Below are positions 50-61,842 of a DNA stretch of 64,000 nt, in pieces. The notes under the pieces are model-generated. The model did no database searches and was not told where the DNA came from. It saw nothing but the letters and a program-made list of their open reading frames with translations. Each line of letters begins with the position of its first letter. The first letter of the stretch is position 1. This stretch comes from a virus. Taxonomy: Duplodnaviria > Caudoviricetes. The stretch is from the IMG/VR virus record IMGVR_UViG_3300048854_000081, positions 1-64,000 of that record, one strand, 5' to 3'. Both the position numbers and the translations under genes were made by a program.

Positions 50-122
50 GGCCTGATAGTATAGATATTAGAATACCCACCCCGAGTGGGAGACTGTGGA
101 GAATAACCACATCAGGCCACCA
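50..122 (+). ncRNA. tRNA-like RNA with non-canonical T-loop (AGAAUAA)
   Basis: Acceptor GGCCTGA/TCAGGCC-A-CCA, D stem GTAT/ATAC, arm CCCAC-CCCGA-GTGGG, T arm TGTGG-AGAATAA-CCACA. Confidence 0.7.
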
Positions 123-128
123 GTTTTT

Positions 129-322
129 GGGAGCGTAGCTCAATAGGATGCATGTGTAAACCTTGTACAAGGTTAGGGCATGTTAGTGTCTATCGACGGA
201 AGTGAATGGCAGCAATTGTCGGTCTAGAACGATGGTTGAAGGATTTCATGAAAGACTTTAGAGATTAGAGCAACTTGTTAACTCAAGAAGTGTTGGTGGT
301 TCGATTCCATCCGCTCCTGCCA
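129..322 (+). ncRNA. tRNA-like RNA with ~120-nt D-loop insertion
   Basis: GGGAGCG-TA-GCTC...GAGC, T arm GGTGG-TTCGATT-CCATC, CGCTCCT-G-CCA; anticodon arm atypical (CTTG-TTAACT-CAAG). Confidence 0.75.
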
Positions 323-328
323 ATTTAG

Positions 329-407
329 GTCCCTTTCGTCTAATGTATCTAGGACGGTCCTCAAGCGCTGGGGACAAACGGTGGAGAATAACCATCAAGG
401 GACGCCA
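329..407 (+). ncRNA. tRNA-like RNA with non-canonical T-loop (AGAAUAA)
   Basis: GTCCCTT/AAGGGAC-G-CCA, arm GTCCTC-AAGCGCT-GGGGAC, T arm GGTGG-AGAATAA-CCATC. Confidence 0.7.
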
Positions 408-429
408 ATCATTCATTTAGGAGCGAATC

Positions 430-984
430 ATGCTTGTTAACGTACATCTTCACAAGTATCAAGGCGAACAGTTTGATGTGATTCGCGTGCAAAATAAAGA
501 TGATGCCGAATTCATTGATTTCCTTAACTGGAAAGTAGAAAAGAACAGAACCGCTCCGGAACAGACTGGTATTTACATCGATTATGGTTTAAACTTCAGT
601 AACGACATTATTGAACGTCTTCCTTATCAATTCGAATATCCTGTTTTAGGTGAAGTTACGGAATTCAAGTTCGATGACCGTAAGGAAGCTCAATCGTTTG
701 GTACCTTGAGTCCCTACGGCGTTTGTGATACAGTTGAACAGGTTCTTGAACACTACAAGAGTGATCTTGAAAATCCTGATCGTAAGTTTTGTATTAGCTT
801 TAACACTATCGTCAAGGCTGAACAGCCGGAAAGTGGTGGTTGGCGCTGGAATAAATGGGGTTCCTACATTGGCACGCATGATCGTCAGTGTGAGTATCTT
901 TACGATGAATAAGGAATTGAACAGGTGATGGTCTATCATCTGTATGAGATTCCTGATCATCTTGGTTATGTCAGTTTAATTTAA
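430..984 (+). pseudogene. phage hypothetical protein with in-frame TAA at 910-912
   Basis: ORF 430..912; the same frame continues GIEQVMVYHLYEIPDHLGYVSLI to TAA 984. Confidence 0.55.
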
Positions 985-988
985 AGTT

Positions 989-1095
989 TTGAACGAAGGG
1001 TGCAGGCTGATGCACTGGGAGGACCACTGTGGTAGTCATGGTCATGACATGATGTAACCACTCAAGCCGGAAGATGTCAGTACCGGCTCGTTCAA
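989..1095 (+). ncRNA. structured ncRNA, unknown class
   Basis: Closing stem TTGAACGA/TCGTTCAA, hairpins GTGCA/TGCAC and GCCGG/CCGGC, within tRNA cluster. Confidence 0.6.
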
Positions 1096-1109
1096 TTAGT
1101 TTTAGTATT

Positions 1110-1267
1110 TGGTAATATGGTGTAAGTAAACGACTACAGACCGTCAGATTTGGCGAAAGCTGATAAACCGTCTTGCCTTTGGATAGTAATCATATAATCA
1201 TCTAGTATGGTGAAACGATTGGCATTAGAATCACGGCAGTTGACAGAACAGTACTACCATGTTATCA
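1110..1267 (+). ncRNA. structured ncRNA, unknown class
   Basis: 12-bp closing stem TGGTAATATGGT/ACCATGTTATCA, no ORF. Confidence 0.5.
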
Positions 1268-1281
1268 TTTACTAGATGAGT

Positions 1282-1405
1282 TTAAAAAGATAAATATTTT
1301 CGGCAGGTTAGCTCTAGCGGCCGTTAAAGCACTGTCAGGAACCTACCCCGCGAAGGTAGGCTTTCGGCGAACTGATAAAAAGCCAGAAAATATTTTTCTT
1401 TTTAA
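1282..1405 (+). ncRNA. structured ncRNA with long AU-rich closing stem
   Basis: TTAAAAAGATAAATATTTTC/GAAAATATTTTTCTTTTTAA enclosing GC-rich hairpins such as CCTACC/GGTAGG. Confidence 0.5.
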
Positions 1406-1409
1406 TTCT

Positions 1410-1417
1410 TATAAATA
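1410..1417 (+). promoter_or_regulatory. T4-type late promoter-like box TATAAATA
   Basis: Exact TATAAATA just upstream of tRNA genes; also at 17362. Confidence 0.5.
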
Positions 1418-1434
1418 GTTTTGTAACACTATCT

Positions 1435-1509
1435 CAGGGTGTGGTTCATTGGTTGATCCGCGTGTTTGGAACGCGATGCAAGGGGGTTCGATTCCCTCCA
1501 TCCTGACCA
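1435..1509 (+). tRNA. tRNA-Pro(TGG), atypical (A37, weak D stem)
   Basis: C1:G72, A73, loop TTTGGAA, T arm GGGGG-TTCGATT-CCCTC, CCA. Confidence 0.7.
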
Positions 1510-1517
1510 TTTTTTAA

Positions 1518-1610
1518 GGTGAGACTACCGTATTGGTGAACGGCACTGCTTCGAAAGCAGTTTGATCCCTGAAAAGGGGTTTGGGGGTTCGAATCCCTCT
1601 CTCACCGCCA
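1518..1610 (+). tRNA. tRNA-Ser(CGA)
   Basis: ACTGC-TTCGAAA-GCAGT, long variable arm, G73, CCA. Confidence 0.9.
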
Positions 1611-1620
1611 GTTTAATTAA

Positions 1621-1717
1621 GGAAGTATGGCCGAGTCTGGCTTATGGCACCTGCCTTGAAAGCAGGCGGCCCGCGTAAAAAACGGGTCCGTGGGTTCAAA
1701 TCCTACTACTTCCGCCA
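1621..1717 (+). tRNA. tRNA-Ser(TGA)
   Basis: CCTGC-CTTGAAA-GCAGG, long variable arm, G73, CCA. Confidence 0.93.
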
Positions 1718-1808
1718 TTTCCCTGTCCACGTTCATCCTGAACGAAGTTGACACCAATTCCATTTAACATCATACTATCCCTCTTATCCATAAAGGTAGT
1801 CTATAGAC

Positions 1809-2798
1809 ATGTCTAACGAATTTAGAGATACAGAAGAGGATTTCACCCCGGATGCGTTTAAGCGTATTAGAGAACTGGGTGGAGCACTCAAGAATCACAT
1901 TCGTAAAATAGTTGAGGATCGATCAATCGTTCTCACGGGTGATACTGATCACATGTCTATTGATTACATTATCAATAATGAATTGAAAAATATCGATGAG
2001 CCAAGGAAGTATGATTTTGAGCCCAAGAATGTCCATGAACAGGACTTGCTTCGTTCTCTTCAGAGAATCATTCCAGATATTTTCATTCCAGAAAATATTG
2101 AGAGCTTGGAGCGAGCTATCCGTGGTGAAGAAGAGTTTCACGTAAGGGGTGGTTACGAATCCAGATGTTACGATTGTGCCAAGACGCTTAACCTCGCATT
2201 TAAGGGCAACAAGGTCCACATTTTCGGTGATGCGAAATGTGAGCACAACAATAAGTTTACTGTAGAAATTGATTTCCCTTCTGGTGAGGTCGTCTTTGAT
2301 GACTGGCCTGATCGCTTCTCAGAAGCCGCTAAGGCGGGTTTGTTCAACGATAAGGATAAGGAGTCGATCAATTACCTGCGCGGTCAACGTAAGCGTACTG
2401 ATGGCTATGCAGCACAGGGTATCTTCCACCATTGTGTAGGTAACACAAGCCCAAGACTTTTTTATGGTAATAAGACCGCACAGATTCAGATTGGTGGCGG
2501 TACGTACAATGAAAAGACTGGCAAGACGACTGTCAAGGGATTGAAGAAGGTTGGCGAGTTTTGTACCGATTTGTGGTGGGTTACCATGATCGATAAACAG
2601 GCATACGAAGCGATGATCGCCAAGTTGCCTGTAGAACGTGACAAGGGCTATTACAAGAAGAAGCTTGAGGTTGCTACGATTAAGCCCGGTCGTTATCGCT
2701 TCACTTGTATGTCGCCAACCGGTAACAATGGCGAAGATGAATATGGCTTTACTTACGCAACTGCTGAATGGATAGGTGAAGTTGACTCTACAAAATAA
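1809..2798 (+). CDS. hypothetical protein (329 aa)
   Basis: Long ORF after TTGACA/TACTAT promoter. Confidence 0.85.
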   Translation: MSNEFRDTEEDFTPDAFKRIRELGGALKNHIRKIVEDRSIVLTGDTDHMSIDYIINNELKNIDEPRKYDFEPKNVHEQDLLRSLQRIIPDIFIPENIESLERAIRGEEEFHVRGGYESRCYDCAKTLNLAFKGNKVHIFGDAKCEHNNKFTVEIDFPSGEVVFDDWPDRFSEAAKAGLFNDKDKESINYLRGQRKRTDGYAAQGIFHHCVGNTSPRLFYGNKTAQIQIGGGTYNEKTGKTTVKGLKKVGEFCTDLWWVTMIDKQAYEAMIAKLPVERDKGYYKKKLEVATIKPGRYRFTCMSPTGNNGEDEYGFTYATAEWIGEVDSTK

Positions 2799-2814
2799 TT
2801 CAGATAGAATGGGA

Positions 2815-2940
2815 TTGTACAATCGATGCTGTGGCGTAAGCATCCCTTACCGAGGCTGAAGACGGTTCGATTCCGTTGAAAGACTGGCTGCTACGTAAGT
2901 CCATATAGGGGTCTGTGGTTCGAATCCACATTGTGCAACA
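2815..2940 (+). ncRNA. tRNA-like RNA with two T-arms
   Basis: TTGTACAA/TTGTGCAA closing stem; ACGG-TTCGATT-CCGT and TGTGG-TTCGAAT-CCACA. Confidence 0.65.
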
Positions 2941-3056
2941 TTTTACTTGACGATTTGAGGGCATATGGATATACTATTGTTTCTATGTTGTCCTCTAGTT
3001 GGCTTAACATACTGTATTATTTGTATGAATAAGAAAAACAATTCTTGAGATATATA

Positions 3057-3218
3057 ATGGATAATGAAGAAGGTTGTGAACATGAAAATTGTGAAGATAT
3101 TAGTCTCCACAAATGTAAGTGTAACGATTGTGGAGAAATTTTTTACTACTCCAAGGCTGCTAAAGATTACTATGTGAATGGTGATCTAAGTGCAACAGAT
3201 ATTTTATTCACTAAATAG
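3057..3218 (+). CDS. small Cys-rich protein (53 aa, not in ORF track)
   Basis: MDNEEGCEHENC...CKCNDCGE..., ends TAG. Confidence 0.65.
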   Translation: MDNEEGCEHENCEDISLHKCKCNDCGEIFYYSKAAKDYYVNGDLSATDILFTK

Positions 3219-3232
3219 TTTAGCAAGTTTAT

Positions 3233-3305
3233 TGCGGGGAGCTAAGTGTGACCAAGCCTCATAAGCTTCGGGACTAAAATGGTGCGATTCCAAACCCCGC
3301 TTCCA
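3233..3305 (+). tRNA. degenerate tRNA-Met(CAT)-like
   Basis: AAGC-CTCATAA-GCTT, GCGGGG/CCCCGC, CCA; D and T arms reduced. Confidence 0.5.
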
Positions 3306-3401
3306 TACAAAAACCTACCTCTCATGGGTGGGTTTTTTATTGACTTGACTTTCACCATACTGACATGTAACATATTTCACATCGTCACTTGAGTAACCAT
3401 C

Positions 3402-3632
3402 ATGACTACCAAAATTCCTGAAGCAAGTATCGAACTTCTCCGACTTGAGCGGTACGCTATTCGTATGCAGTTGGAAGAAAATAGTAAGGCTCAGGATAAG
3501 GCTTATCGAATTGAAAACTTCGAATCCTACCAGAAAGTGTATAATGAATTGCGTTCGGAGGCACAGTTGCTTCGGGTTCGGGTTAATACGCTTTCTCTGA
3601 TGATTGAACTGTACGAGAATGATCGTGGCTAA
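3402..3632 (+). CDS. hypothetical coiled-coil protein
   Basis: ORF co-directional with block. Confidence 0.7.
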   Translation: MTTKIPEASIELLRLERYAIRMQLEENSKAQDKAYRIENFESYQKVYNELRSEAQLLRVRVNTLSLMIELYENDRG

Positions 3633-3945
3633 GGTCATTCCATTCGACATGTACCGAGAGGGTAAGTATTTCGGTTATCCCGAGTGCTGCACGAATGCCC
3701 TTCGCAACCATGAACTGACCTTTGGTGAGAGTGCATTCACGGGTAGTGGATATATCCCCTGTGATACGTGCGCCAAAAAGCCTTACGATGAACTGGTAGC
3801 CGAGATTCAGAGGAATCGTGTCTGCTCTATCCCGTTCCCCAATGGCTCGGGTCTTGACCCTGAGACTCGTAAGTTTACTGAAGAATTTTATGTGTTCATG
3901 GGTGGTATTGACACTCACGCCGAGGTTACTAATGAAGATATCTGA
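3625..3945 (+). CDS. Cys-rich GYPxCC protein, paralog 1
   Basis: FGYPECC...PCDTCAKKPYDEL...RVC..PFPNG. Confidence 0.8.
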   Translation: MAKVIPFDMYREGKYFGYPECCTNALRNHELTFGESAFTGSGYIPCDTCAKKPYDELVAEIQRNRVCSIPFPNGSGLDPETRKFTEEFYVFMGGIDTHAEVTNEDI

Positions 3946-4144
3946 AATTATTAAGGAACTGACTGAGTGTAAAGAACTGGTTGGTGATATTGAAGTTACC
4001 TTTTGGAAAGGTGGTGAGAAGCCTATTTCTGTTAAAGATATGTGGATTCAGTTTCACTTCGCTGATCAAAATGAACCGCCTTTTGTTGCTCTGTGTAACA
4101 CGGAGAACGAGAAGCAAGTTGACCTCTTCAGGAGTTGGGTGTAA
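3932..4144 (+). CDS. hypothetical protein
   Basis: MKISEIIKEL start overlapping previous gene end. Confidence 0.65.
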   Translation: MKISEIIKELTECKELVGDIEVTFWKGGEKPISVKDMWIQFHFADQNEPPFVALCNTENEKQVDLFRSWV

Positions 4145-4467
4145 TGGTAATGGTTCGTATCGATCCCTCCGACATGTATAGTAGTATGGGAGCATTCTTC
4201 GGATATCCTAAGTGCTGTATTGACGCACTTTTTGACTGGGATAAGAAGAGTAGCCATTCAGAATTTCATGGGACAGGTTTCGTTCCGTGTAAGGAATGTG
4301 CTAAGAAACCTTATGATGAACTTCTTGCTGAAATACAGAGTAACCGCGTCTGTAAGACACCATTTCCTAACGGTACGTCTGTTGGTAGACGTGGACCGGA
4401 CGATGATTACGCACCCTTTACTACTGAATATTTGGATTATCTTGCTGGGTTGACCGAAAATGAATGA
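4135..4467 (+). CDS. Cys-rich GYPxCC protein, paralog 2
   Basis: FGYPKCC...PCKECAKKPYDEL...RVC..PFPNG. Confidence 0.8.
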   Translation: MGVMVMVRIDPSDMYSSMGAFFGYPKCCIDALFDWDKKSSHSEFHGTGFVPCKECAKKPYDELLAEIQSNRVCKTPFPNGTSVGRRGPDDDYAPFTTEYLDYLAGLTENE

Positions 4468-4765
4468 AGAGAAGAAAAAGAAGCCACGCAAGCCTGTCGA
4501 TATTCGAAAGGCGACTAACCGTGCCCTGACCGATGTCAAAATCTTCAAGGCAATGACGGGTACCATTCATGAGAGATTTGCTACAGCCATGCATTACGGT
4601 ATGTCTCTGATAACTGACGAATGGAATGCATGTTTCAAGCTTCTTAACGAATTGATCGCCAGATGGCCGGAACAATCTGAAGAGACCGAAGAGAATCGTG
4701 CTCGATTGCTCACATGGCTGATCGAGGAATCTCGTAAGGATGATTTTGTCGAACAGTTGACATAA
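4460..4765 (+). CDS. hypothetical protein
   Basis: ORF track, coupled to neighbours. Confidence 0.7.
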   Translation: MNEEKKKKPRKPVDIRKATNRALTDVKIFKAMTGTIHERFATAMHYGMSLITDEWNACFKLLNELIARWPEQSEETEENRARLLTWLIEESRKDDFVEQLT

Positions 4766-4811
4766 GTCAACCATCGATGTAATATATTTCACATCGAAAC
4801 CGGAGAATCAC

Positions 4812-5126
4812 GTGACCATTCCTATTATCAATTTCGTAGATTCCAACCATTGTAAGCTTACAGTGAATGAAAAGCGTATCGAACTGAAGATTTCAACAAA
4901 GCTTACCGGCATTGAAATGGCTCGGGTTGAGAAGTTTTTGGTTGCTGTAGGTAAAGACCTACAGGAATCCAATTTAGGTATGACCTATCGTGGGAGCATC
5001 CCCAATCGTGCCTTGCTTGAGAACGATAGCATTTTGATCGGAATGCATGATGGTGAGAAGAGAATCTTCTTCAACTATTTTGAACGTAATGGTGGTAAGT
5101 ACGTTCCTCCAAAGCCGAAAAGTTGA
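4812..5126 (+). CDS. hypothetical protein
   Basis: GGAG SD, GTG start. Confidence 0.7.
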   Translation: MTIPIINFVDSNHCKLTVNEKRIELKISTKLTGIEMARVEKFLVAVGKDLQESNLGMTYRGSIPNRALLENDSILIGMHDGEKRIFFNYFERNGGKYVPPKPKS

Positions 5127-5181
5127 CTTGTAAAACAAAACAAGATAGCATATTACTTCTCAACCAATAGAGATTACTCCC

Positions 5182-5382
5182 ATGTCCCTGAAAGTCGGTG
5201 ATGTCGTTCAACTCAAAGCAGATGTCCGCCGTCCTATCGTTCCTGAGGGTCGTGAGGACAACAAAACCGCAACCATTCGTGCTCTGCTTGAGCATGGTGG
5301 CCTGTTCCTCAATCGTGACCTCCATGGTATGAAGTGGTGGAACGTGCAGGATGTAGAAATCGCAAAGAATAAGGATAAGTAA
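5182..5382 (+). CDS. small SH3/KOW-like protein
   Basis: LKVGDVVQLK N-terminus. Confidence 0.65.
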   Translation: MSLKVGDVVQLKADVRRPIVPEGREDNKTATIRALLEHGGLFLNRDLHGMKWWNVQDVEIAKNKDK

Positions 5383-5660
5383 TGGGAACTCTAACAGCTA
5401 TTGCAATTCTTGGAGCTTACGGAAGTATCGTTGGTCTGAGTCTCTTCTTGATTGGCTCTGCCATCTATCAGATTTATAATGGAATCGGGGGCTGGGGATT
5501 CGATATGGCAACCGGTCTTATTTTGGTATTCTTTAACGTTATCATCACCATGGCTGCACATGACGAATACAAGAAGCAGCAAGCACATCCCTGCATCGAA
5601 TGGAAACAAACTTATGATGTCGGTGGTATCGATCCAGTTTGTATCAAACGTAAGCCATAA
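5382..5660 (+). CDS. membrane protein
   Basis: Two hydrophobic segments. Confidence 0.7.
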   Translation: MGTLTAIAILGAYGSIVGLSLFLIGSAIYQIYNGIGGWGFDMATGLILVFFNVIITMAAHDEYKKQQAHPCIEWKQTYDVGGIDPVCIKRKP

Positions 5661-5668
5661 GGATTCTT

Positions 5669-6040
5669 ATGAAAATGAAATTCTCAGCTAAACGTAAGCG
5701 ATGCGAACAGTGCGACGGTACTGGTGAAGGTTCATCCGTAGGATGCAGCTTTAAGGCTCACTGTGACGGTTGCAACGGCAAAGGCTCCATCCCTCTGGTG
5801 GATGTCGAAGCATTGCGTAAGGAACTGATCATGGCCCCTAAGAAGGCTGTCTTCAGCTTTACCCGCGATGAGCTAATGAGTATGATTGGTGAAACCGATG
5901 GACTGGTGACTTCTATCGAAGAACTTGTTCCCAATTGGCAGACAGATGGTATTATGATTGACGGTAAGGTCTGCTCTAAGGAATTGGATACTCTTCTGAA
6001 GAAGTATCACTATCGTAATGGCTTCCCACAATCAAATTAA
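5669..6040 (+). CDS. DnaJ-type zinc-finger protein
   Basis: CEQCDGTG and CDGCNGKG motifs. Confidence 0.7.
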   Translation: MKMKFSAKRKRCEQCDGTGEGSSVGCSFKAHCDGCNGKGSIPLVDVEALRKELIMAPKKAVFSFTRDELMSMIGETDGLVTSIEELVPNWQTDGIMIDGKVCSKELDTLLKKYHYRNGFPQSN

Positions 6041-6051
6041 GGATTAACGTC

Positions 6052-6222
6052 ATGCATCTATGGGTAATGGTTATTGTAATGCAATTCGGTGTAGGCTATC
6101 ATAACGCCATGACCAGTCAGACCATTAGCGGCTTCGAATCGAAAGAAGCTTGCCTATCACAACTTGAGTTTGTACGTGACAGAAATTCCACGTATGATGC
6201 CTACTGTATTTCCGTAAAGTAA
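6052..6222 (+). CDS. small exported protein (56 aa, not in track)
   Basis: MHLWVMVIV...FESKEAC...AYCISVK, AAGGA SD. Confidence 0.65.
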   Translation: MHLWVMVIVMQFGVGYHNAMTSQTISGFESKEACLSQLEFVRDRNSTYDAYCISVK

Positions 6223-6231
6223 GGATTAATT

Positions 6232-6705
6232 ATGAATTACGATAACAATCAAATTAAGCAGTTTGCGGAATGGGCTGCAAATACGGCCAATGGTTTTCCT
6301 AAGCTAAACTCTATCAATGAGCCTTGGACGGCTCTCAAGGAAATGCTAGAGGAACTACATGCTCGCCGTGTGAATGAGCTTTCTCCTGAGATTCGTTGGT
6401 GCATCGGTAATACGGTGTATGGTCGCCCAAGCGCGGTCGATCTTCTTGAAAGAGCCGAACGGGTCATTCGGGAGACGGGAGACGAATTGGATTATTCTAT
6501 TGATACTCGCCTGCCGGACTTACATTCGGTAAGGAAGCTATTCGTTACGGAAACATCCGAGGAACCGGTGATCACTCAGAAGATGATCAATGAAGCATCT
6601 GACATTTACGATAAGGTAAATGCCAAGAACCAAGCATGTGATCCGGATGCCATCGTAGCCGTTCTGTTGTATGCTTTCCGAGACGCTAAGGGCAACCAAG
6701 CATGA
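6232..6705 (+). CDS. hypothetical protein
   Basis: AAGGA SD, ORF track. Confidence 0.75.
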   Translation: MNYDNNQIKQFAEWAANTANGFPKLNSINEPWTALKEMLEELHARRVNELSPEIRWCIGNTVYGRPSAVDLLERAERVIRETGDELDYSIDTRLPDLHSVRKLFVTETSEEPVITQKMINEASDIYDKVNAKNQACDPDAIVAVLLYAFRDAKGNQA

Positions 6706-7403
6706 TCGTCAGTCCTAAATTTGATAACCTTATTGATCGATTGAACAATAAGGTTTCCATGTCCAAGACACCAGTTCCCGGCTTCATCATGGGTCTGTCT
6801 GGTACTGATTCTATCGTAACGTTTATTCTACTGTATGAAACCATGCGTCTACGTGGCGAATTGTCAGCGCAGCGTGTTCGTGGTGATCATTATGTAGAAG
6901 GTATCAATCCCGGCTGGTTTCAAACTAAGGTTATTCCTTGGCTTCGTAAACGTTGCCCTGATGCTAACATTAATGTTAGATATACTTTGACCGGTATCAA
7001 CGATGACGAATCTCGCTGGGCAACGTTGACACGAGAAGCTAATAATGGTAACTACTGGATCGCATCAGCCGTTAATTGTACTGAAAAGAATCTTGGTACC
7101 TATTCCATTGTTAACAAAAGTGCGTCCATCTGGCCGATTGGTAACGTTTGGAAGACAGACGTTATGGAACACTGCAAGATGCTAAGCGTACCCAAGGTTG
7201 CTATGGATATGGCTCGCCTTCCTGATTGTCTGTGTGGTCGTGATGAACTTGCCGCAGAGAACCTTGAATTAATTGATGAAATCCTTCAGTATAGGGTCGA
7301 TCCGACGAAGTATGATCCTGAGCTTCTTAAGAAGATGATCGAATATGTGAAGGATACCAAGGACTTGTACGGATTTAAGGATCGTACACCCTACTTGGTG
7401 TAA
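6702..7403 (+). CDS. NAD+ synthetase (NadE)-like PP-loop ATP pyrophosphatase
   Basis: GLSGTDS PP-loop; NCTE..LGTY...PIGNVWKTDV matches the NadE pattern NxSE..xGY...PIGDLxKTQV. Confidence 0.7.
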   Translation: MIVSPKFDNLIDRLNNKVSMSKTPVPGFIMGLSGTDSIVTFILLYETMRLRGELSAQRVRGDHYVEGINPGWFQTKVIPWLRKRCPDANINVRYTLTGINDDESRWATLTREANNGNYWIASAVNCTEKNLGTYSIVNKSASIWPIGNVWKTDVMEHCKMLSVPKVAMDMARLPDCLCGRDELAAENLELIDEILQYRVDPTKYDPELLKKMIEYVKDTKDLYGFKDRTPYLV

Positions 7404-7416
7404 TATCGTCCTGTAC

Positions 7417-7728
7417 ATGCTGGGGAGTGATATGACATACTTAGGCTATGTGATCATTGCGTTATACATTCTTTTAGGAATCATCATCCATTACATTTAC
7501 CTGAAGGATCGTCATGAAATTCTTAACGATCCGGATGTTAAAGAGACATGGATGAAGAGTGAGTTGCAATTCCACTGCACCAAGGAACGTATTGAACATT
7601 TGCTTAAGACGTTTGCAGACATTGCAGGTTTCGTGGTAGCATTACTTTGGCCGTTTTTTCTGCCGTATTTCATTTACGCAGAGATTCGGGATAAAACCAA
7701 AGAGTACGAAGACAAAGATAAACGTTAG
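7417..7728 (+). CDS. membrane protein
   Basis: Two TM segments, LLWP motif; ends TAG. Confidence 0.7.
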   Translation: MLGSDMTYLGYVIIALYILLGIIIHYIYLKDRHEILNDPDVKETWMKSELQFHCTKERIEHLLKTFADIAGFVVALLWPFFLPYFIYAEIRDKTKEYEDKDKR

Positions 7729-7839
7729 CTCTGTGATAGCTAGGGGACTACCCCGAAAAGATTAGCGGTGCGAGTCCGCTCTAGGGCATAGTGCCAACCC
7801 TGCAAATAGACTATGCGGGTGCAAATCCCGTCAGAGAGT
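7729..7839 (+). ncRNA. tRNA-like RNA with two T-arms
   Basis: CTCTGTG/CAGAGAG; AGCGG-TGCGAGT-CCGCT and GCGGG-TGCAAAT-CCCGT. Confidence 0.6.
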
Positions 7840-7842
7840 GTT

Positions 7843-7982
7843 TTAGAGAGCCGGGTAGCAATGGGTGCCAGTGAGTCCCAGTGTAGGTATGACTGAAGCG
7901 ATGGACGATATCTGAGGTGGGTTCGACTCCCACATTACATCGTCAATGTGGGAGGTTCGACACCTCCGCTCGGTCTCTCTAA
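7843..7982 (+). ncRNA. tRNA-like RNA with two T-arms
   Basis: Closing stem TTAGAGAGCCGGG/CTCGGTCTCTCTAA; GTGGG-TTCGACT-CCCAC and GGAGG-TTCGACA-CCTCC. Confidence 0.65.
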
Positions 7983-7989
7983 TGTTTTG

Positions 7990-8129
7990 GGGAATATGAC
8001 GGAACTGGACAGACGCGCGGGCTAGGCAACACCTCTTTAGAGGATATCCACTTAGGGAGAAAGGAGCTAAACCGGCCGCAATATGCTAAGTCATAAAGCT
8101 TGTGGGTTCGAATCCCACTATTCCCACCA
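7990..8129 (+). ncRNA. Leu-type tRNA scaffold with expanded, branched anticodon arm
   Basis: GGGAATA/TATTCCC-A-CCA, Leu-like D arm ACGGAACTGGACAGACG, canonical T arm, ~50-nt insert. Confidence 0.75.
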
Positions 8130-8178
8130 TTTTACACGACTTGACAGTTATATTTTAGATGGTATAGTATTTCAATAA

Positions 8179-8249
8179 ATCGGATCATCTAGGTAGCAAG
8201 ACTTCCTTGTAATTTGAGGAAGAACGTTGGTGAAAGGCCAACTCCGATG
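8179..8249 (+). ncRNA. degenerate tRNA-like RNA
   Basis: ATCGGA/TCCGAT, CTTCCT-9nt-AGGAAG, GTTGG-TGAAAGG-CCAAC; follows a promoter. Confidence 0.5.
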
Positions 8250-8257
8250 AAGGTTAT

Positions 8258-8400
8258 GGGGCAAAGTGGTGGGTTGGAAACCACACCGCCACTATCAGGC
8301 GGCAGGCCATGGTTGACTATGAGGGCGCACAGTACACGCGTTCAAGATTAGTCTGACCCTCTGGACTTATAGTAGGTTCGAATCCTATATTGCTCCACCA
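8258..8400 (+). ncRNA. 143-nt RNA with Ala-identity acceptor (G3.U70, A73, CCA)
   Basis: GGGGCAA/TTGCTCC-A-CCA, GTAGG-TTCGAAT-CCTAT; interior not tRNA-like. Confidence 0.7.
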
Positions 8401-8432
8401 ATTTCACAACACAAACCAAACAGGGTAACATT

Positions 8433-9722
8433 ATGAATCGTAAATTTATTCTCGCTGCGATCCTTGCAGTATTACCACTAACAGCGTTCGCACAGAACCA
8501 GCCATGTCCGGTTGGTACGACCAGTTGTACGCAGTCCAGTCAGAGCATGGGTGACGTGGACAATGGCTCCACTGCCAATGGCACACAGAGCAACGCCAGT
8601 CAGGCCGGTAACTCGGCCAATTCGATTGCGACCGGCAACAACATCAATCCGAACTTTGATAACAAGGCGCAGACGACACAGAATGCGACCAACACCACGA
8701 CCGGTACTATCAGCGGTGGTAACACCAACAGTGCAGCCACGGGTGGTAGTTCCATTGGTAACTCTTCCACTAACGATAACCATTCATCGGTAGGTAATAC
8801 TTCGTCTAACAGCGGTGGTAATATCCTTGGTGGATCGTCCAGTGGTGGTAACACTCTTTCTAACGGTTCGTCAAGCGGCGGCAATAACCTTACCAATGGT
8901 AGCAACACTGCGACCAACACTGCAAATGGCGGTGCCGGTGGTCAGGGTGGCACAGCTACAGGTGGTGCAGGCGGTTCTTCCACGTCTTCCTCTAACGGTA
9001 CGAATGCACAGGGTCAGGGCCAAGGCCAGTCATCCACCAATTCTAACGGTCAGGGTCAGTCATCTACTAATGCTAACGGCCAGTCGTCTGCCAATAAGGT
9101 AACGGGTGGTGCACAGAGCAATGGTCAGGGTCAGTCGTCCACTAACTCGCTGGGGCAGGATGCTAGTACTCGTTCGGGTTCGGATGTGAATGTGGATGCT
9201 TCGGATCGTTCGTCGAGCAATTATAGCGAGAAGACGATTTTCATTCCGGCAATCGTTCCCCCAACGCTTCCGTCACAGGTTGTTGCTGGTAACATCATCC
9301 ATGAAACGCTAGCTTGTGGTCCTCGCCAAGTTGTGGTAAAGACTCCTATCCAAGGCACGTATTTCGGTTTCTTTAAGACTAAGCGTATCGAACAGGGTAC
9401 GACAGATGATCTTGCTCCTGAAGTAGATGCTAATGGTAACGCAGTGTTTTATAAGAAGATGCTGCTTCCGGATGGTCGCTATCATTTGATTGGCTCACAG
9501 CCAGTACTTATTTCTACTGTAGTAAGTATCTCCGGTGCTCGTAACTTTGCCATGGGTGGCAATGGTAACGGTGGCGCATCTGGTCAGATTGGTGGTGGTG
9601 CATCGGCTGCAATGAATCAGCTTGCGGTTCGCATCGTACTCCATGATTGTGATCTTGGCCCGATGACACCAGAATCGGTCAACGTTTACATGAATCCGAT
9701 GCCCAAGCGCATTCGTCAGTAA
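8433..9722 (+). CDS. secreted G/S/N/Q-rich repeat protein
   Basis: Sec signal peptide ending AFA; SSGGN and GQGQSS repeats; globular C-terminus. Confidence 0.85.
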   Translation: MNRKFILAAILAVLPLTAFAQNQPCPVGTTSCTQSSQSMGDVDNGSTANGTQSNASQAGNSANSIATGNNINPNFDNKAQTTQNATNTTTGTISGGNTNSAATGGSSIGNSSTNDNHSSVGNTSSNSGGNILGGSSSGGNTLSNGSSSGGNNLTNGSNTATNTANGGAGGQGGTATGGAGGSSTSSSNGTNAQGQGQGQSSTNSNGQGQSSTNANGQSSANKVTGGAQSNGQGQSSTNSLGQDASTRSGSDVNVDASDRSSSNYSEKTIFIPAIVPPTLPSQVVAGNIIHETLACGPRQVVVKTPIQGTYFGFFKTKRIEQGTTDDLAPEVDANGNAVFYKKMLLPDGRYHLIGSQPVLISTVVSISGARNFAMGGNGNGGASGQIGGGASAAMNQLAVRIVLHDCDLGPMTPESVNVYMNPMPKRIRQ

Positions 9723-9792
9723 TCGATTTAGCTAATACAAATAAACCCGCTATCTAACGGTAGTGGGTTTATTCTATAAAGGATTATCAACC

Positions 9793-10140
9793 ATGTCAAC
9801 AATTATTGTTAGTCTATCTAAAGCTGTCATCTGCATTGCTGCACAATGTTATCCAGCATTAGTCGGTGCCTCTACACCTACCGGAACGTTTGAATTGGAA
9901 AATGTTTTGGTCAATAGTCAAGGTTACGGTGGCGACGTACTCATGTTTAAGGAAACCCCGACAGAAATCTTCGCCATCCATCGTGTGTGGACACTGAAGC
10001 CTAAGGAACGTCGTCTAGAACGTCTAGAGTCTCCCAACGCACAAGATCGTCATGGGATCACTGGCGGGTGTATCAATGTTGAGCCAGAGGTGTATGACCT
10101 TCTCGTGGAAGAGGCTGATACTCTTAGGATCGTACCATAA
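9793..10140 (+). CDS. L,D-transpeptidase (YkuD-like) domain protein
   Basis: TPTGTF, FAIHRVW...TGGCINV catalytic His/Cys motif. Confidence 0.8.
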   Translation: MSTIIVSLSKAVICIAAQCYPALVGASTPTGTFELENVLVNSQGYGGDVLMFKETPTEIFAIHRVWTLKPKERRLERLESPNAQDRHGITGGCINVEPEVYDLLVEEADTLRIVP

Positions 10141-10219
10141 CAGCGCTGAGGCACTTGACACGCACATCACAGGACATCCACCATGATCGGCATCCCTTCC
10201 AACACAGATCGGATAGACG

Positions 10220-10450
10220 ATGGACCACCGCAGAAGAGAAATCGAGTCGATGTTACGGGCTTGTGGCGTGACAGATTTCAAGATACTCCGTGAGAAGAAG
10301 CATTATGTTTACGAGCTTCTAACACCCTTCGGAACACGGAAGATGGTGATGAGTAAATCACCCAAGACTAATAATCGTACGAATAAGAATAACCGCTCAA
10401 CGATTATGCAGTTAATGACCAATGAAGCATTGGTACGAGTCAGTCGGTAG
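10220..10450 (+). CDS. small basic protein
   Basis: ORF after promoter; ends TAG. Confidence 0.65.
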   Translation: MDHRRREIESMLRACGVTDFKILREKKHYVYELLTPFGTRKMVMSKSPKTNNRTNKNNRSTIMQLMTNEALVRVSR

Positions 10451-10687
10451 ATTGACCTCCTTTGTTTATAACTGTATGATGCGGCCTATGACAACTAACC
10501 TCATTGGCCGCATCATGATCATCCTTACAATTCTTATGCTCGTTATATGCGCAGCACTCTTGGGATATTGTCTTGCCATGGGATTTCATCGTGGCTGGGA
10601 TACTCAATTGAAGTTCAATACGGCGACGTTCGCGGTAAACGTGATTATCTTCGCCATCCTCACTAAACAAGCCATTGGACATTGGTA

Positions 10688-11029
10688 ATGAGATATACGG
10701 TAGTAATCCATTATCATGATGCTGAGTTAGCACCAGAAATATTCGGAGTGGAGACTCAAAAGCCTAAGGATTCTGTGGTCGATACCATCACCACAACCTT
10801 GGAAACGTTGATCGGAACTCGTAAGGAATATCTACGCAAGCTCAGGAACATGACCATGAGCGACACAGACTACGATAGCGTGGTCGATGCTCGTTTTAAG
10901 ACTCGTGTCTTACCCTTTGATTTAGGTTGCGTTATCTTACCCGATCACGGTAAAAAAGATTTCAATGTCCTCATTGAAACTCTGGACGAATGGTGGGAAT
11001 CCAATATCCATATGGACCCAGCCTCATGA
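10688..11029 (+). CDS. hypothetical protein (related to 14819..15160)
   Basis: Shared C-terminus GxVIxP...TxDEWW/F. Confidence 0.7.
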   Translation: MRYTVVIHYHDAELAPEIFGVETQKPKDSVVDTITTTLETLIGTRKEYLRKLRNMTMSDTDYDSVVDARFKTRVLPFDLGCVILPDHGKKDFNVLIETLDEWWESNIHMDPAS

Positions 11030-11170
11030 CTTCTAAAAATATACCTGATGGGTTCATCACAATAGATGAACTCATCGAAACCATGTGTAAGGATGACCCT
11101 GAATTCCGTAAGTTATTGGAGGAAGAACGCATTCTGTTGCATGAAGAATTAGCTGAAATTAAGAGAAACA

Positions 11171-12415
11171 ATGGAAACTAAACTTTTTATCCCTAAGACC
11201 ATTCGTGTTGGTTATCAGGAGCGTCCAGACACATTCACTGGCAAACTTGCTTACGTAATTTATTACGATGAGAAGGGCAAGCTTCGCAAGGAATCATCGT
11301 GGAACAGTTGGTGTGAATCCGAGCTAGGCCATATCGACATCGAGAACACGCCTAAGCCTAACTTCGTCTTGAACAAGGGTGTGAAGCGCTACGGCGGCTG
11401 GGGTTCGAACAGTGGCCGGAACATGGTCCGCATCTACGACCCTCGTGACTTTGAGTTTGAGATTACCGTGGAAAACCTCCTAGGTGTGCTCGCACACTCC
11501 GATGTGACCAAGCGTGACATCGTAGAAGAGTGCGTGTACGCGTGGGCTGGCAGTGAGCTAGTCTTGCTCCCGGTCAATTCCGATGCTTACCAGCAATCGT
11601 TACTTTACACTGAGAAGCAGGAAAAAGGAGTATCGGCCAAGGAGCTTATCAAGGGTCATACGTACACGCTGCGCAAGAGCGATGGCGAATTGATTTACAT
11701 CGGTCACTTTAAATATTTTGAAGTGGGGAGTTATCGCCGTGATGCTTTTCAGCATGATAAGGGTAAGAAGCACATTTTCTTTGATGGTAAACATTATGTA
11801 ACTCCCGGTGTCGCTACGTTGGCCGAGGACATTTCTAATGAACCTGTTGCTAATTATGCTAATTTGGTAGAAGCATTCTTGTCGAGCACGAGTGGCAATC
11901 GCATTTCTGGAATTTATCATCGTATTTCGGATACGATTAAAGCTGGGCAGCAATACGTTATTCCTACTTCAAATCCAGATCGATTTATGACAGTATTTCA
12001 AAGTGCTGAGCCGGATAGTTCAGGTAACCCAAGAGTGCTGAATTTTGTTACTAACAGTAGTCGATATCACTACGGAAGCTTGCATCAGTTCGCACGTTAC
12101 ATTACAGCTAGAATGGATGGTAATGATTTTTATAAAAAAGAGCATTACTATAGTTCATGGGATAATGAAAATCCGTTCTATACGCCTGAGCGTGTCGAGA
12201 CGTATGGTCATTATTCACAGTATAAGACTGACAAGGTAATTCCAGCCAAGAAATCACCAGAATATATTAAATTTGCTGATTTCTTTGAAAGTAAGGGTTA
12301 TGATCTAACAGCTATTACGACAGAACAGGTCGTGGAAGCCATGAAGCACATTGGATTCGGTAAGATGGTTTACGTGTTTGCCGATGGTAAAGAAAAAGAA
12401 ATTGATTACATTTAA
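11171..12415 (+). CDS. large-phage hypothetical protein (414 aa)
   Basis: Long ORF with GKLAYVIYYDEKGKLRKE and DPRDFEFEI motifs. Confidence 0.85.
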   Translation: METKLFIPKTIRVGYQERPDTFTGKLAYVIYYDEKGKLRKESSWNSWCESELGHIDIENTPKPNFVLNKGVKRYGGWGSNSGRNMVRIYDPRDFEFEITVENLLGVLAHSDVTKRDIVEECVYAWAGSELVLLPVNSDAYQQSLLYTEKQEKGVSAKELIKGHTYTLRKSDGELIYIGHFKYFEVGSYRRDAFQHDKGKKHIFFDGKHYVTPGVATLAEDISNEPVANYANLVEAFLSSTSGNRISGIYHRISDTIKAGQQYVIPTSNPDRFMTVFQSAEPDSSGNPRVLNFVTNSSRYHYGSLHQFARYITARMDGNDFYKKEHYYSSWDNENPFYTPERVETYGHYSQYKTDKVIPAKKSPEYIKFADFFESKGYDLTAITTEQVVEAMKHIGFGKMVYVFADGKEKEIDYI

Positions 12416-26892: not shown

Positions 26893-26898
26893 ATGAAA

Positions 26899-45009: not shown

Positions 45010-45098
45010 GGGTAGGTAGCTTAAGTGAGCGAGTCTCACAGGTAAAGCAGCGGAGTCATGACCGTCAATGTGGGTTCGAATCCCATCCCTGCCCGCCA
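45010..45098 (+). ncRNA. atypical tRNA: D-loop hairpin insert, 8-nt anticodon loop
   Basis: GGGTAGG/CCTGCCC-G-CCA; GTGAG-CGAGT-CTCAC in D loop; GCGG-AGTCATGA-CCGT. Confidence 0.7.
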
Positions 45099-58479: not shown

Positions 58480-58480
58480 G

Positions 58481-59784: not shown

Positions 59785-59838
59785 CACCTTCCGTAGTTCC
59801 GTTATAATACTCTCACACTCACTCAAACGGATAACATC

Positions 59839-60264
59839 ATGCACCTCACACGTCTGGTCATGCTCGCCGAATGGTTGGAAGCTGGCGCTCCCGAAAAGGA
59901 TAACGTCACTCGTTTCAGCATGACGAACTGGATCGTTCCGCAGAAAAATTCGTGTGGCACGGCATGTTGCATCGCTGGCGCTACCGTGCAGTTTTTCAAC
60001 GATGAAGCTCGCACGTTCAAGAGTGAGCAGGACGTTTATAACGCCTCGCTCAAGGGTGTGCAGGAGTACGCTCGTGGCCTGTTGGACCTCACGAAGGATC
60101 AGGCGAACGACCTGTTCTATGCCAATGAATATTTCATTGTCGAGAATGAGGATGCGCTGTATTACTCCAAAGCGCTGAAGGCCATCACTCCCGCACATGC
60201 TGCCCGCGTGATCCGCAAGTTTATCGCCACGGGTGAAATCGACTACATCGGTTGCGAAGCTTAA
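59839..60264 (+). CDS. hypothetical protein (CGTACCIAG motif)
   Basis: F.M..W...CGTACCIAG...LF...IT..HAA.VIR. Confidence 0.8.
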   Translation: MHLTRLVMLAEWLEAGAPEKDNVTRFSMTNWIVPQKNSCGTACCIAGATVQFFNDEARTFKSEQDVYNASLKGVQEYARGLLDLTKDQANDLFYANEYFIVENEDALYYSKALKAITPAHAARVIRKFIATGEIDYIGCEA

Positions 60265-60349
60265 CCTAACGTAACTAGGAGGGGTTGCATAAGGTAACCC
60301 CTTCCATTAGAATAACCTCACACCAACCAAATCACTCAAAGGAAATCAC

Positions 60350-60571
60350 ATGACCTTCCGTATCCTGTCCGCCGCCCGTTTCGCCAACACCACGAAGATG
60401 ACCGGTCGCACGCCGCTGGAAGTCTCGGCTGTCAGTGGCAAGAACTACAAGACGTTGGACTCCGCGATCCGCTCGGGTCTGCCGCAGATCGTCAGCAAGG
60501 ATGCCCGTCGTGGTGACGTGTTCGTGGTCATCGAAGGTCCGAACGGCCAGCTTGCCCACCGCACCATCTGA
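60350..60571 (+). CDS. hypothetical protein
   Basis: AAGGA SD. Confidence 0.7.
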   Translation: MTFRILSAARFANTTKMTGRTPLEVSAVSGKNYKTLDSAIRSGLPQIVSKDARRGDVFVVIEGPNGQLAHRTI

Positions 60572-60593
60572 TCCACGTTCTATAGGCAAACCC

Positions 60594-60890
60594 ATGAAAA
60601 AGCATCATTTTACTAGTGGATCAGTAAATGCTTCCACGTATGCAGTAATCGATGGTGTTCCGTATCCTCAACTGGATATGATCATGGGTATTGCCAAAAG
60701 TAAAGGCTACACTGGTAGCGAAAATACTTTAGCTTACCGCATCAAGGGTGGGGCCAAATCATGGGCAGAATTGATCCGCTCGCCACGCAACAATATGAAA
60801 AATGCGATGGTAGATCGTCAGTTAAAAAGGGAACGTGAGAAAGCCGAGATTGCACAAATGATGCGCGATCTTGATGAACGCAAACGGTAA
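60594..60890 (+). CDS. hypothetical protein, possibly DNA-binding
   Basis: TL.YRI..G. Confidence 0.65.
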   Translation: MKKHHFTSGSVNASTYAVIDGVPYPQLDMIMGIAKSKGYTGSENTLAYRIKGGAKSWAELIRSPRNNMKNAMVDRQLKREREKAEIAQMMRDLDERKR

Positions 60891-60933
60891 TGGGGTTGAC
60901 AATTAAAATCCCTCCACTATAATGTAATTCATC

Positions 60934-61009
60934 GGGTCGATAGCTCAGTTGGCAGAGCACGGGACTTTTAATCCTGCGGTCGCGGGTTCGAATCCCGCTC
61001 GACCCACCA
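60934..61009 (+). tRNA. tRNA-Lys(TTT)
   Basis: CGGGA-CTTTTAA-TCCTG, CCA. Confidence 0.95.
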
Positions 61010-61175
61010 GTCTTTGGGGCATGGTTGTAGGGTATGAACAAAAGGCTAGGTTTGCGTACGGAACCTAGTTTCATACCTTGGGCGTTCGATTCCCCACCCT
61101 TTGTTTTCTGTGGTACAATACGATAACGAGCAATCGACCGTGGCGTATCACTGTTTTATAACCTAAGGAGTTATT

Positions 61176-61397
61176 ATGGATCAGGCTTTCATTTTGTTGG
61201 AAGGGTCGCTGAATCATCTGTCTGTCGAGCATGGTGCCAAGGTGGGCGATACGGTGTATCCCGTGAAGGGCTATGATTACGGGCTGGCGCGTGATGATAC
61301 GTATGCCACGGGTGAAGAGTATATCTCGGTCACTCTGGACCAGAATGGTGACTATCCGTATTTCACGGTACCCGTTCGCCTGATCGAGTCGGTTTAA
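61176..61397 (+). CDS. hypothetical protein
   Basis: DYGLA.DDT..TG...ISVTL...GDYPYFT. Confidence 0.8.
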   Translation: MDQAFILLEGSLNHLSVEHGAKVGDTVYPVKGYDYGLARDDTYATGEEYISVTLDQNGDYPYFTVPVRLIESV

Positions 61398-61436
61398 AGG
61401 TAGTTGCAATACATTTCAAATCATGTATAATGAAAT

Positions 61437-61575
61437 TGTGGTCAGAGACATCGGGACGACTAACCTCCCAGTGTGTACCACGACCGGCCATCCTGTCGGT
61501 AATAGAAAAGTGGATGCATAGCAGGTCATGATGACAATTCGCTATCAGGATACGGGGACGATAGCCTGCCCCACA
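61437..61575 (+). ncRNA. structured ncRNA, unknown class
   Basis: Follows promoter at 61404, TGTGG/CCACA ends, no ORF. Confidence 0.45.
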
Positions 61576-61580
61576 GTTTC

Positions 61581-61657
61581 GGAAGTGTAGCCCAAAATAC
61601 TAGAGGCGGGGAGCATTAGAGCACCCTTCAGTGTAGGCGCAAACCCTACCACTTCCA
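61581..61657 (+). ncRNA. degenerate tRNA-like RNA
   Basis: GGAAGTG/CACTTCC, GTAGG-CGCAAAC-CCTAC, irregular anticodon arm, no CCA. Confidence 0.6.
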
Positions 61658-61667
61658 CCCGGTTTAT

Positions 61668-61842
61668 GCAGGTGTACGCGAATGGCGAAGCGGCTGGAAA
61701 GAAACCTAGCGACGGTTAGATAGGCGTCCAGTGTTATATGAGGATATACCGAAGGTTTGCGCAGACCAACGGTGAAACAATAGAGAGTCGTCTCTATCAT
61801 GCTCATGTTTTGTTGGTGGTTCGATTCCATCCTCCTGCGACA
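61668..61842 (+). ncRNA. 175-nt tRNA scaffold with expanded anticodon loop and variable arm
   Basis: GCAGGTG/CTCCTGC, D arm CGCGAATGGCGAAGCG, CTGGA..TCCAG, GGTGG-TTCGATT-CCATC. Confidence 0.7.

Follow-up and report, generated by a model that had tools for sequence, protein, structure and literature searches.

Candidate genes for tRNA-derived, mostly non-decoding small RNAs among the tRNA genes of an XacN1-like jumbo phage

Results

tRNA-shaped elements interleaved with phage tRNA genes

The DNA analyzed here, called the window, is the first 64 kb (64,000 nucleotides, nt) of a 350,036-bp single-contig phage genome (IMG/VR record IMGVR_UViG_3300048854_000081), and our subject is a set of elements within it that look like transfer RNAs (tRNAs) in their acceptor and T arms and unlike them elsewhere. 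Coordinates are those of the window unless stated, and each element is named by its start position (8258, for example, is 8258-8400). The ends of the contig overlap, 349893-349965 being identical to 50-122, and DNA of the phage is present in two soil metagenome DNA runs, which may be its source. ARAGORN finds 41 tRNAs genome-wide that cover all 20 amino acids, 12 of them within the window. A further tRNA at 17387-17461, which adjoins tRNA-Glu 17469-17543, is seen by Rfam (17387-17458, 45 bits) and by the acceptor/T scan described below but is missed by ARAGORN. The odd elements number about 14, against 13 tRNAs in the same 64 kb. A tandem pair of CUA (amber suppressor) tRNAs lies at 26819-26975 on the minus strand, and XacN1, a Xanthomonas jumbo phage, has also been reported to carry CUA suppressor tRNAs (PMC5852040). 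Because the two phages have these tRNAs in common, and because the protein family of open reading frame (ORF) 1809-2798 is 50% identical to its XacN1 homologue, the phage is treated here as an XacN1-like jumbo phage.

The original prediction, made from the sequence of the window, held that a dozen positions keep paired acceptor-like and T arms, often with CCA, while carrying up to about 120 nt of extra structure or a doubled T arm. Checked base by base, all 12 flagged positions have a paired terminal (acceptor-like) stem and a T-arm hairpin; the list is sound but incomplete, since at least two elements, 3234-3305 and the degenerate ~61013-61104, are missing from it. Terminal stems pair at 6/6 to 8/8 positions, with one mismatch in seven in two elements (7729 and 61668). 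A T-arm-like hairpin of 4-5 base pairs (bp) adjoins the 3' strand in every element, with one spare base between them in 45010, 8179 and 8258. The enlargements are also there: the elements are 70-194 nt long, five of them hold ~60-125 extra nt and three (2815, 7729 and 7845) have a second T-arm hairpin. Six end in NCCA (50, 129, 329, 7990, 8258 and 45010). The full arrangement, in which a 7-bp acceptor stem stacks on a T stem of 5 bp and NCCA follows, is found in 50, 129, 329 and 7990; 8258 and 45010 fit it save for the spare base, and the remaining elements fit it partly. A scan for a 7-bp acceptor stem with an adjacent 5-bp T arm and NCCA gave 49 matches on the plus strand of the genome versus 1-3 in shuffled genomes, and the odd elements stand out in it beside the canonical tRNAs. 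The orphan T-arm motifs of the window are all on the plus strand and all between ORFs.

Standard tools do not recognize the elements. ARAGORN, run with introns (up to 200 nt) and without, called none of the 12, and none matched any of the 4,227 families of Rfam 15 at the gathering score or at E <= 0.5, so the elements do not reduce to known Rfam families, an outcome that would have spoken against the original prediction. The inserts show no sequence match to one another or elsewhere in the genome. A group I intron in a tRNA gene (~200 nt or more, in the anticodon loop) was considered and rejected, as the inserts span 16-125 nt, no Rfam intron family matched and ARAGORN -i was blank. A decoding anticodon arm, defined as a 5-bp stem and a 7-nt loop with U33 and a readable triplet, was likewise not found: loops are 4-9 nt in family F1 (described below) and 6 nt in 129 and 61581, and the two-T-arm elements lack the arm. 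The anticodon-like loop of 8258 has 7 nt but C at position 33.

Two families conserved with covariation in related phages

Relatives' loci (L006, L007, L013, L014 and L015) were the surroundings of ORF 1809-2798 homologues found by protein search on large metagenomic contigs, and for most relatives the DNA compared was a piece of ~20 kb. They contain tRNA clusters mixed with odd elements of the same build, and when the genome was compared with them by BLAST several non-coding stretches were 77-91% identical, above the surrounding coding DNA. BLAST of 40-420, 7700-8420 and 1-12000 against 50,697 phage records gave no match, and IMG/VR searches with three window proteins gave no relatives. Two of the 12 elements form family F1:

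50-122, plus strand: F1 member, a 73-nt cloverleaf with acceptor 7/7, T stem 5/5, T loop AGAATAA, an "anticodon" hairpin of 5-bp stem and 5-nt loop, and an ACCA end
329-407, plus strand: F1 member of 79 nt with acceptor 7/7, T stem 5/5, T loop AGAATAA, an extended D hairpin, a closed anticodon-like hairpin and a GCCA end

F1, for which a covariance model was built from six sequences, has nine members in at least six phages, namely the phage of the window, four metagenomic relatives and the cultured phage XacN1. Two are in this genome, three in IMG/VR 3300023048_000001 (one of these is L006:9196-9271), and one each in L013, L014, L007 and XacN1. The XacN1 gene (AP018399.1 289169-289244, minus strand; 61.9 bits, E 3.6e-14 with the covariance model) is unannotated and lies in the gap between ORF396 and ORF397, with a consensus -35/-10 pair, identified by eye, just upstream. 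Its acceptor carries G3:U70 and A73, and its flanks contain a thrice-repeated short motif. In L007, a UUA (ochre suppressor) tRNA at 5838-5912 stands directly upstream of the F1 member at 5920-5997. Most matches of an F1 pattern scan were chance or coding sequence.

Covariation of F1 was counted on the 12 pairs of the acceptor and T stems, the D and anticodon hairpins not being alignable column-wise with MAFFT. Over the nine members 98.1% of the cells in these stems are paired; 29 cells show changes on both sides, and 21 extra pair types were counted. None of 500 shuffles was as good, and slid registers gave only 31-58% pairing. The T loop (AGAAT-type, not TTCRA) and the extended D hairpin are kept in sequence. 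The hairpin at the anticodon position, in contrast, has a stem of 4-7 bp and a loop of 4-9 nt with no common triplet, and hence F1 cannot decode. As judged from its sequence, F1 is a tRNA-shaped RNA with a CCA end that is under selection and is non-decoding.

The second family, F2, is represented in the window by one element:

2815-2940, plus strand: F2 member of 126 nt with an 8/8 terminal stem, a D-like hairpin, a long stem with an internal T arm (2861-2877) and a second T arm (2914-2930)

F2 has four members, the orthologues in L006, L013 and L007 scoring 113-147 bits, and its consensus fold is a terminal stem, a D-like hairpin, a long stem with an internal T-arm hairpin and a second T arm (both T-arm hairpins pair 5/5 in 2815-2940). 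Its 36 pairs are 93% paired and nine are changed on both sides, which none of 500 shuffles matched. Covariation in related phages, a check that the original prediction had itself proposed, is thus present in both families (29 compensatory cells in F1, nine pairs in F2). The F2 interior contains long invariant stretches although the adjacent protein is only ~50% identical between phages, and it is strongly constrained, being more conserved than the terminal stem. Class II tRNAs of the phage give a weak end-to-end alignment with the F2 model, which fits descent from tRNA. A promoter-like site at 2782-2810 (10/12) ends a few bases before the RNA. F2 was not found in XacN1 or LucasX, and a scan with the F2 core pattern returned only the already-known contig in IMG/VR, plus one ordinary tRNA in metagenomes. 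As several elements are conserved in related phages including XacN1, we take them to be working RNAs rather than junk.

A rival reading takes the elements for processing punctuation: RNase P and 3'-end signals, comparable to plant mitochondrial t-elements or mascRNA, that would cut long early transcripts into tRNAs and mRNAs and set mRNA ends. In that case the acceptor/T half alone would count, the released RNA having no role of its own. Some elements do lie just upstream of ORFs in apparently the same unit (329-407 before 430, 8258-8400 before 8433 and 61668-61842 before 61862), the constrained and best-kept part of F1 is its acceptor/T half, and anticodon-like loops drift between close relatives. 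Punctuation would not, however, account for an F2 interior that outlasts its terminal stem, nor for an F1 T loop and D hairpin whose sequences are kept far beyond the needs of a cleavage signal. Moreover, 2815 and the XacN1 F1 gene look stand-alone, each with its own promoter-like site, and three to five elements in tandem would be more than punctuation needs. We therefore regard punctuation as unlikely.

The remaining elements of the window

The other nine flagged elements and the two found in addition are as follows.

129-322, plus strand: large-insert element of 194 nt with acceptor 7/7, a canonical T arm (5/5) and a GCCA end
3234-3305, plus strand: tRNA-like element beyond the flagged set, 72 nt, with a CAU-type 7-nt loop, not called by ARAGORN or Rfam
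7729-7838, plus strand: two-T-arm element of 110 nt with a 6/7 terminal stem, a conserved 5' module and T arms at 7764-7780 and 7815-7831
7845-7980, plus strand: two-T-arm element of 136 nt with a long terminal stem (at least 6/6, one bulge) and canonical T arms at 7917-7933 and 7951-7967; z -3.2
7990-8129, plus strand: chimera-like element of 140 nt with acceptor 7/7, T stem 5/5 and an ACCA end
8179-8248, plus strand: cloverleaf-like element of 70 nt with a 6/6 terminal stem, a 7-bp anticodon-like stem, a 4-bp T stem with loop TGAAAGG and no CCA; z -2.8
8258-8400, plus strand: large-insert element of 143 nt with acceptor 7/7, T stem 5/5, a D arm, a UAU loop of 7 nt on a 5-bp stem, ~65 nt in the variable region and an ACCA end
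45010-45098, plus strand: D-insert element of 89 nt with acceptor 7/7, T stem 5/5, a hairpin in the D region, an 8-nt CAU-type loop and a GCCA end
~61013-61104, plus strand: degenerate element beyond the flagged set, after tRNA-Lys, with an imperfect T arm; z -3.15
61581-61660, plus strand: cloverleaf-like element of 80 nt with acceptor 7/7, T stem 5/5, T loop CGCAAAC, a 6-nt anticodon-like loop and an ACCC end
61668-61842, plus strand: large-insert element of 175 nt with acceptor 6/7, a canonical T arm (5/5), ~100 nt of extra structure and a GACA end, 20 nt upstream of an ORF

In 129-322, the constrained fold places ~125 nt inside the D loop and leaves an anticodon-like hairpin with a 4-bp stem and a 6-nt loop; its 3' 22 nt recur unchanged at the 3' end of 61668-61842. 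The additional element 3234-3305 is >90% identical in L006 and L013, and it follows a small Cys-rich ORF and precedes, as read by eye, a terminator-like hairpin and T run. The orthologue of 7729-7838, L006:16454-16583, has the same 5' module and the same order of inner T arm, hairpin and outer T arm. A nested minihelix intron was considered for the three two-T-arm elements and rejected, since the strand after the inner T arm has no acceptor-like upstream partner. The orthologue of 45010 in L007 (5472-5544, 73 nt) lacks the D-region hairpin and has a 7-nt CAU-type loop; it shows one compensatory change, at the first acceptor pair.

The ends of 7990-8129 (the 7-nt 5' strand and 28 nt at the 3' end) are identical to those of one of the tandem suppressor tRNAs, tRNA-CUA 26899-26975 (minus strand), whereas the interior is unalignable. 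Even decay would not give such a pattern of shared ends around an unrelated interior. The acceptor of 8258 combines G3:U70 with A73, the alanine identity set. When 48-63 nt were deleted from 8258 at position 42-44, ARAGORN called a tRNA-Ile. Removal of an archaeal-type (bulge-helix-bulge) tRNA intron would be expected to restore a canonical tRNA; in this deletion scan a stable tRNA call was obtained only for 8258 and for 203969 and 204985, which lie outside the window. L006:16588-16734 and L013:17683-17833 align weakly with 8258-8400 and are possible counterparts; they do not share its G3:U70.

More odd elements of tRNA shape were seen beyond the window, at genome positions 203969-204063 (with a possible 8-nt anticodon loop), 204985-205113 and 212540-212680 (76% identical to L007 7351-7494). 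In L013, the T-arm hairpin of 8798-8890 comes just after the 5' strand and not before the 3' strand. This element, which has no counterpart in the close relative L006, may represent a tRNA-like RNA in circularly permuted form.

Some of these elements invite the view that they are working tRNAs in disguise, which would either tolerate a large arm or have the insert removed by phage nuclease and ligase, and would serve AUA, CAU-type, frameshift or suppressor reading. The UAU loop of 8258 on its 5-bp stem and the tRNA-Ile call after deletion are consistent with this, as are the Met/Ile2-type loop of 3234-3305, the 7-nt CAU loop of the L007 orthologue of 45010, the suppressor ends of 7990 and the Rnl1-like ligase encoded at 22530-23702. 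For 8258, 3234 and the 45010 lineage the explanation is plausible. For the elements as a whole we consider it rather improbable: F1, 129 and 61581 have loops of 4-6 nt (4-9 nt across F1 members), an anticodon arm is altogether missing from the two-T-arm elements, ARAGORN calls none even with introns allowed, and the deletion scan gave no consistent product for 129, 7990, 61668 or 7729. Inserts of 60-125 nt are also far below group I intron size and without an Rfam intron match, and the canonical tRNAs already cover all 20 amino acids.

A second alternative is that duplicated tRNA genes are decaying, having taken up insertions and mutations by drift, and appear ordered only because they arose recently. 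The imperfect T arm of ~61013-61104, the odd T loops of 8179 and 61581, the seven elements for which no orthologue was detected, the resemblance of 7990 to a recent tRNA-CUA chimera, and the inserted hairpin and widened loop by which 45010 differs from its L007 orthologue could all be read in this way, and plain decay is plausible for ~61013, 8179 and 61581. Decay does not produce the covariation of F1 and F2, however, or keep F1 as far away as XacN1. Pairing of the terminal and T stems is perfect in nearly every element while the interiors are entirely different, and promoter-like sites are retained. In a comparison with possible parents, no element apart from 7990 closely resembled any present-day tRNA of the phage; since none of the others is a recent copy of such a tRNA, they are not fresh pseudogenes. 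As a class, the elements are not decayed pseudogenes, and we hold general decay to be quite improbable. The original prediction's preference for selection over decay is upheld for F1 and F2 by covariation and for 7729 and 45010 by their orthologues; it does not extend to 129, 7845, 7990, 8179, 8258, 61581 and 61668, for which the limited DNA of the relatives yielded no clear orthologue.

Promoter-like sites, nearby structured RNAs and neighboring genes

Nine perfect (12/12) matches to TTGACA-16-TATAAT lie on the plus strand between 44000 and 62500, many of them directly before tRNAs or odd RNAs. Besides that of 2815, promoter-like sites are found just upstream of 8179 (8141-8168) and of the unit 61432-61842 (61404-61431), which continues into an ORF. 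Element 45010 lies between tRNA-Arg and tRNA-Gln in one operon with a terminator downstream.

Structured RNAs of other shapes occur in the same regions. An RNA-like element of ~140 nt at 61437-61576, closed by a stem and not tRNA-shaped, directly follows the promoter-like site 61404-61431 and precedes 61581 and 61668. Upstream of the tRNA-Gln/Ser/Ser cluster are two conserved structured RNAs, 986-1092 and ~1275-1400, each with a terminal stem; the latter is preceded by an 11/12 promoter match at 1240-1268. Identity to their L013 counterparts (8503-8605 and 8614-8661) is 78-84%, and to the eye L006 ~9090-9190 resembles them. The 3' ends of the two are not tRNA-shaped, and neither has an Rfam match.

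In each of the four phages with F2, ORF 1809-2798 (phrog_33592) adjoins the F2 RNA. A link between the two was considered and rejected because XacN1, L014, L015 and L008 have the gene without F2. Cys, His and Asp residues are invariant in the protein, which AlphaFold models with confidence (predicted local distance difference test score, pLDDT, 91.5). It gave no functional clue, since no PDB match was obtained by sequence, Foldseek or VIA-align.

The window also encodes a Ro60-like protein (DUF2828/DUF7788, 47908-49341), and the elements might be its Y-RNA-type partners, as YrlA is in bacteria. YrlA RNAs, which are tRNA mimics, are known from 22 phages (PMC4201824), and this together with the gene itself would suit the proposal. 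The RNAs of the window do not look the part, however: none matched an Rfam Y RNA or YrlA family at E <= 0.5, they end at the acceptor stem and not at a Ro-binding stem, and no module is common to their interiors. Nor can the acceptors provide a shared Ro-binding site, as their sequences are not conserved. Only 45010 is near the gene (2.8 kb), all other elements being >11 kb away, and XacN1 has an F1 RNA but no detectable Ro60-like gene. A search with the Ro60-like protein led to five distant loci, and the four of these scanned with the RNA models contained no F1 or F2 RNA. Given the blank Rfam search, the lack of a shared motif and the XacN1 case, we consider a Ro60 partnership very improbable.

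Discussion

We favor, with moderate confidence, the interpretation that the elements are genes for tRNA-derived structured small RNAs, mostly non-decoding, that form old lineages in the XacN1-like jumbo phage clade. The RNAs would be transcribed from strong sigma-70-type promoters, either alone or in units with true tRNAs. An acceptor/T stack is what RNase P, 3' trimming enzymes and the enzyme that adds CCA recognize, and the 12-bp stack of the elements, often with NCCA, would allow the host RNase P, 3' trimming and CCA enzymes to release and stabilize them. The rest of the molecule would have been remodeled, by closing the anticodon loop or changing its size, by inserting arms into the D, anticodon or variable region, or by adding a second T-arm hairpin, and this remodeled half would carry a lineage-specific role.

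Retention in F1 of the tRNA outline and CCA end but not of the anticodon points to an off-ribosome mimic of tRNA for tRNA-binding proteins. The RNAs may generally be off-ribosome mimics that bind tRNA-recognizing proteins, serving as decoys or adaptors in phage-host tRNA conflict. Bacterial immunity that targets tRNA includes anticodon nucleases and toxins that modify the CCA end, and phage tRNA genes are now seen as tools against tRNA-cleaving host defenses. A putative decoy or adaptor role in this conflict is what we infer to be the most likely specific function; the phage also has full tRNA sets and an Rnl1-like ligase. The three functions that the original prediction put forward, those of carriers for cargo RNA, decoys for tRNA-targeting toxins and substrates for the phage RNA ligase, are conjectures. 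A more far-reaching version, in which many families of non-decoding mimics with authentic acceptor/CCA ends act as decoys or adaptors against tRNA-targeting immunity or as off-ribosome aminoacyl carriers, is offered tentatively, as a possibility that we doubt. If true, it would mean an RNA-based layer of counter-defense alongside the known phage tRNAs and RNA ligases.

Several observations weigh against this interpretation. The CCA end that the original prediction described as frequent is present in the six elements named above but altered to ACCC in 61581 and GACA in 61668, and CCA is absent from 2815, 7729, 7845 and 8179. In another family, the L013 orthologue has GCAA where that of L006 has GCCA, and in view of all these cases the CCA end is not strictly kept. 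Clear orthologues of 129, 7845, 7990, 8179, 8258, 61581 and 61668 were not found in the limited DNA of the relatives, and some of these seven may be neutral remnants. Three cases (8258, 3234-3305 with its perfect CAU loop, and the L007 orthologue of 45010) appear close to working tRNAs. No link of the elements to a particular protein partner was obtained, and the group, being heterogeneous, probably serves no single function. Transcription, processing, stability and the mimicry role are, finally, what we infer from the DNA.

Annotation pipelines discard whatever fails the tRNA model. In these 64 kb the fraction so hidden equals the canonical set in size, and clear structural selection acts on at least two of its families. 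This suggests that new small RNAs of phages commonly evolve by way of tRNA scaffolds.

Comparison with known systems

The tRNA-like domain of transfer-messenger RNA (tmRNA) resembles the elements in that it retains an acceptor stem and a T arm, has a large domain in place of the anticodon arm and ends in CCA. Element 8258 has the acceptor G3:U70 and A73 of tmRNA and tRNA-Ala, the G3:U70 being found in no other of the 12 flagged elements. The inserts are 60-125 nt, however, and tmRNA was detected neither genome-wide by ARAGORN -m nor in the window by Rfam, in searches that were not directed at a tag reading frame or pseudoknots. Plant mitochondrial t-elements and the mascRNA of MALAT1 are acceptor/T-type mimics recognized by RNase P and RNase Z inside longer transcripts. 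They are defined by their role in cleavage, whereas here the F2 interiors and F1 loops are themselves conserved and some units apparently stand alone.

YrlA of M. smegmatis is a tRNA-like RNA with a 7-bp acceptor-like stem; RNase P cleaves the RNA, and CCA is added to it (Chen et al. 2014, PMC4201824). Phage copies lie near tRNA arrays, and RNAs of the YrlA type are expected within ~4 kb of the Ro60 gene on the same strand (PMC4201824). Like the elements, YrlA is a non-coding RNA with tRNA-like D, T and acceptor-like modules. Unlike them, it has a Ro-binding stem at its RNA ends and a loop-closed acceptor-like stem, whereas the ends here are the acceptor stem, with neither an Rfam match nor a common Ro-binding motif. 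YrlA, the tRNA-like domain of tmRNA, and the t-elements and mascRNA are functional analogues, not families to which these RNAs belong.

The closest known case is RNA C of phage T4 (species 1 RNA, rnaC; NC_000866 70908-71046), together with RNA D. RNA C is a stable RNA whose role is still not known (PMC3014915, PMC9697503). It stands at the end of a phage tRNA cluster and is 139 nt long. Directly after its canonical T-arm hairpin comes a 3' strand, 5/7 paired with the 5' end, and a structured interior of ~100 nt takes the place of the D and anticodon arms. When the T4 sequence and fold are read, elements 129, 7990, 8258 and 61668 can be seen to share this build. There are differences. No sequence resemblance was noticed on reading, neither a homology search nor a covariance model having been run; the annotated end of RNA C is UA, not CCA, whereas six elements here encode NCCA; and RNA C is reported as a late RNA, whereas the elements lie behind sigma-70-type promoters. 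Where T4 has one or two such RNAs, 64 kb of this phage contain at least a dozen, of several unrelated builds. Stable tRNA-like RNAs in phage tRNA clusters are thus old knowledge, and what is new is the scale, the several builds, the covariation and the occurrence of one family in a cultured phage. As F1 is present, unannotated, in cultured XacN1, which has a tractable host, the 50-year-old puzzle of what RNAs like T4 RNA C are for becomes directly testable.

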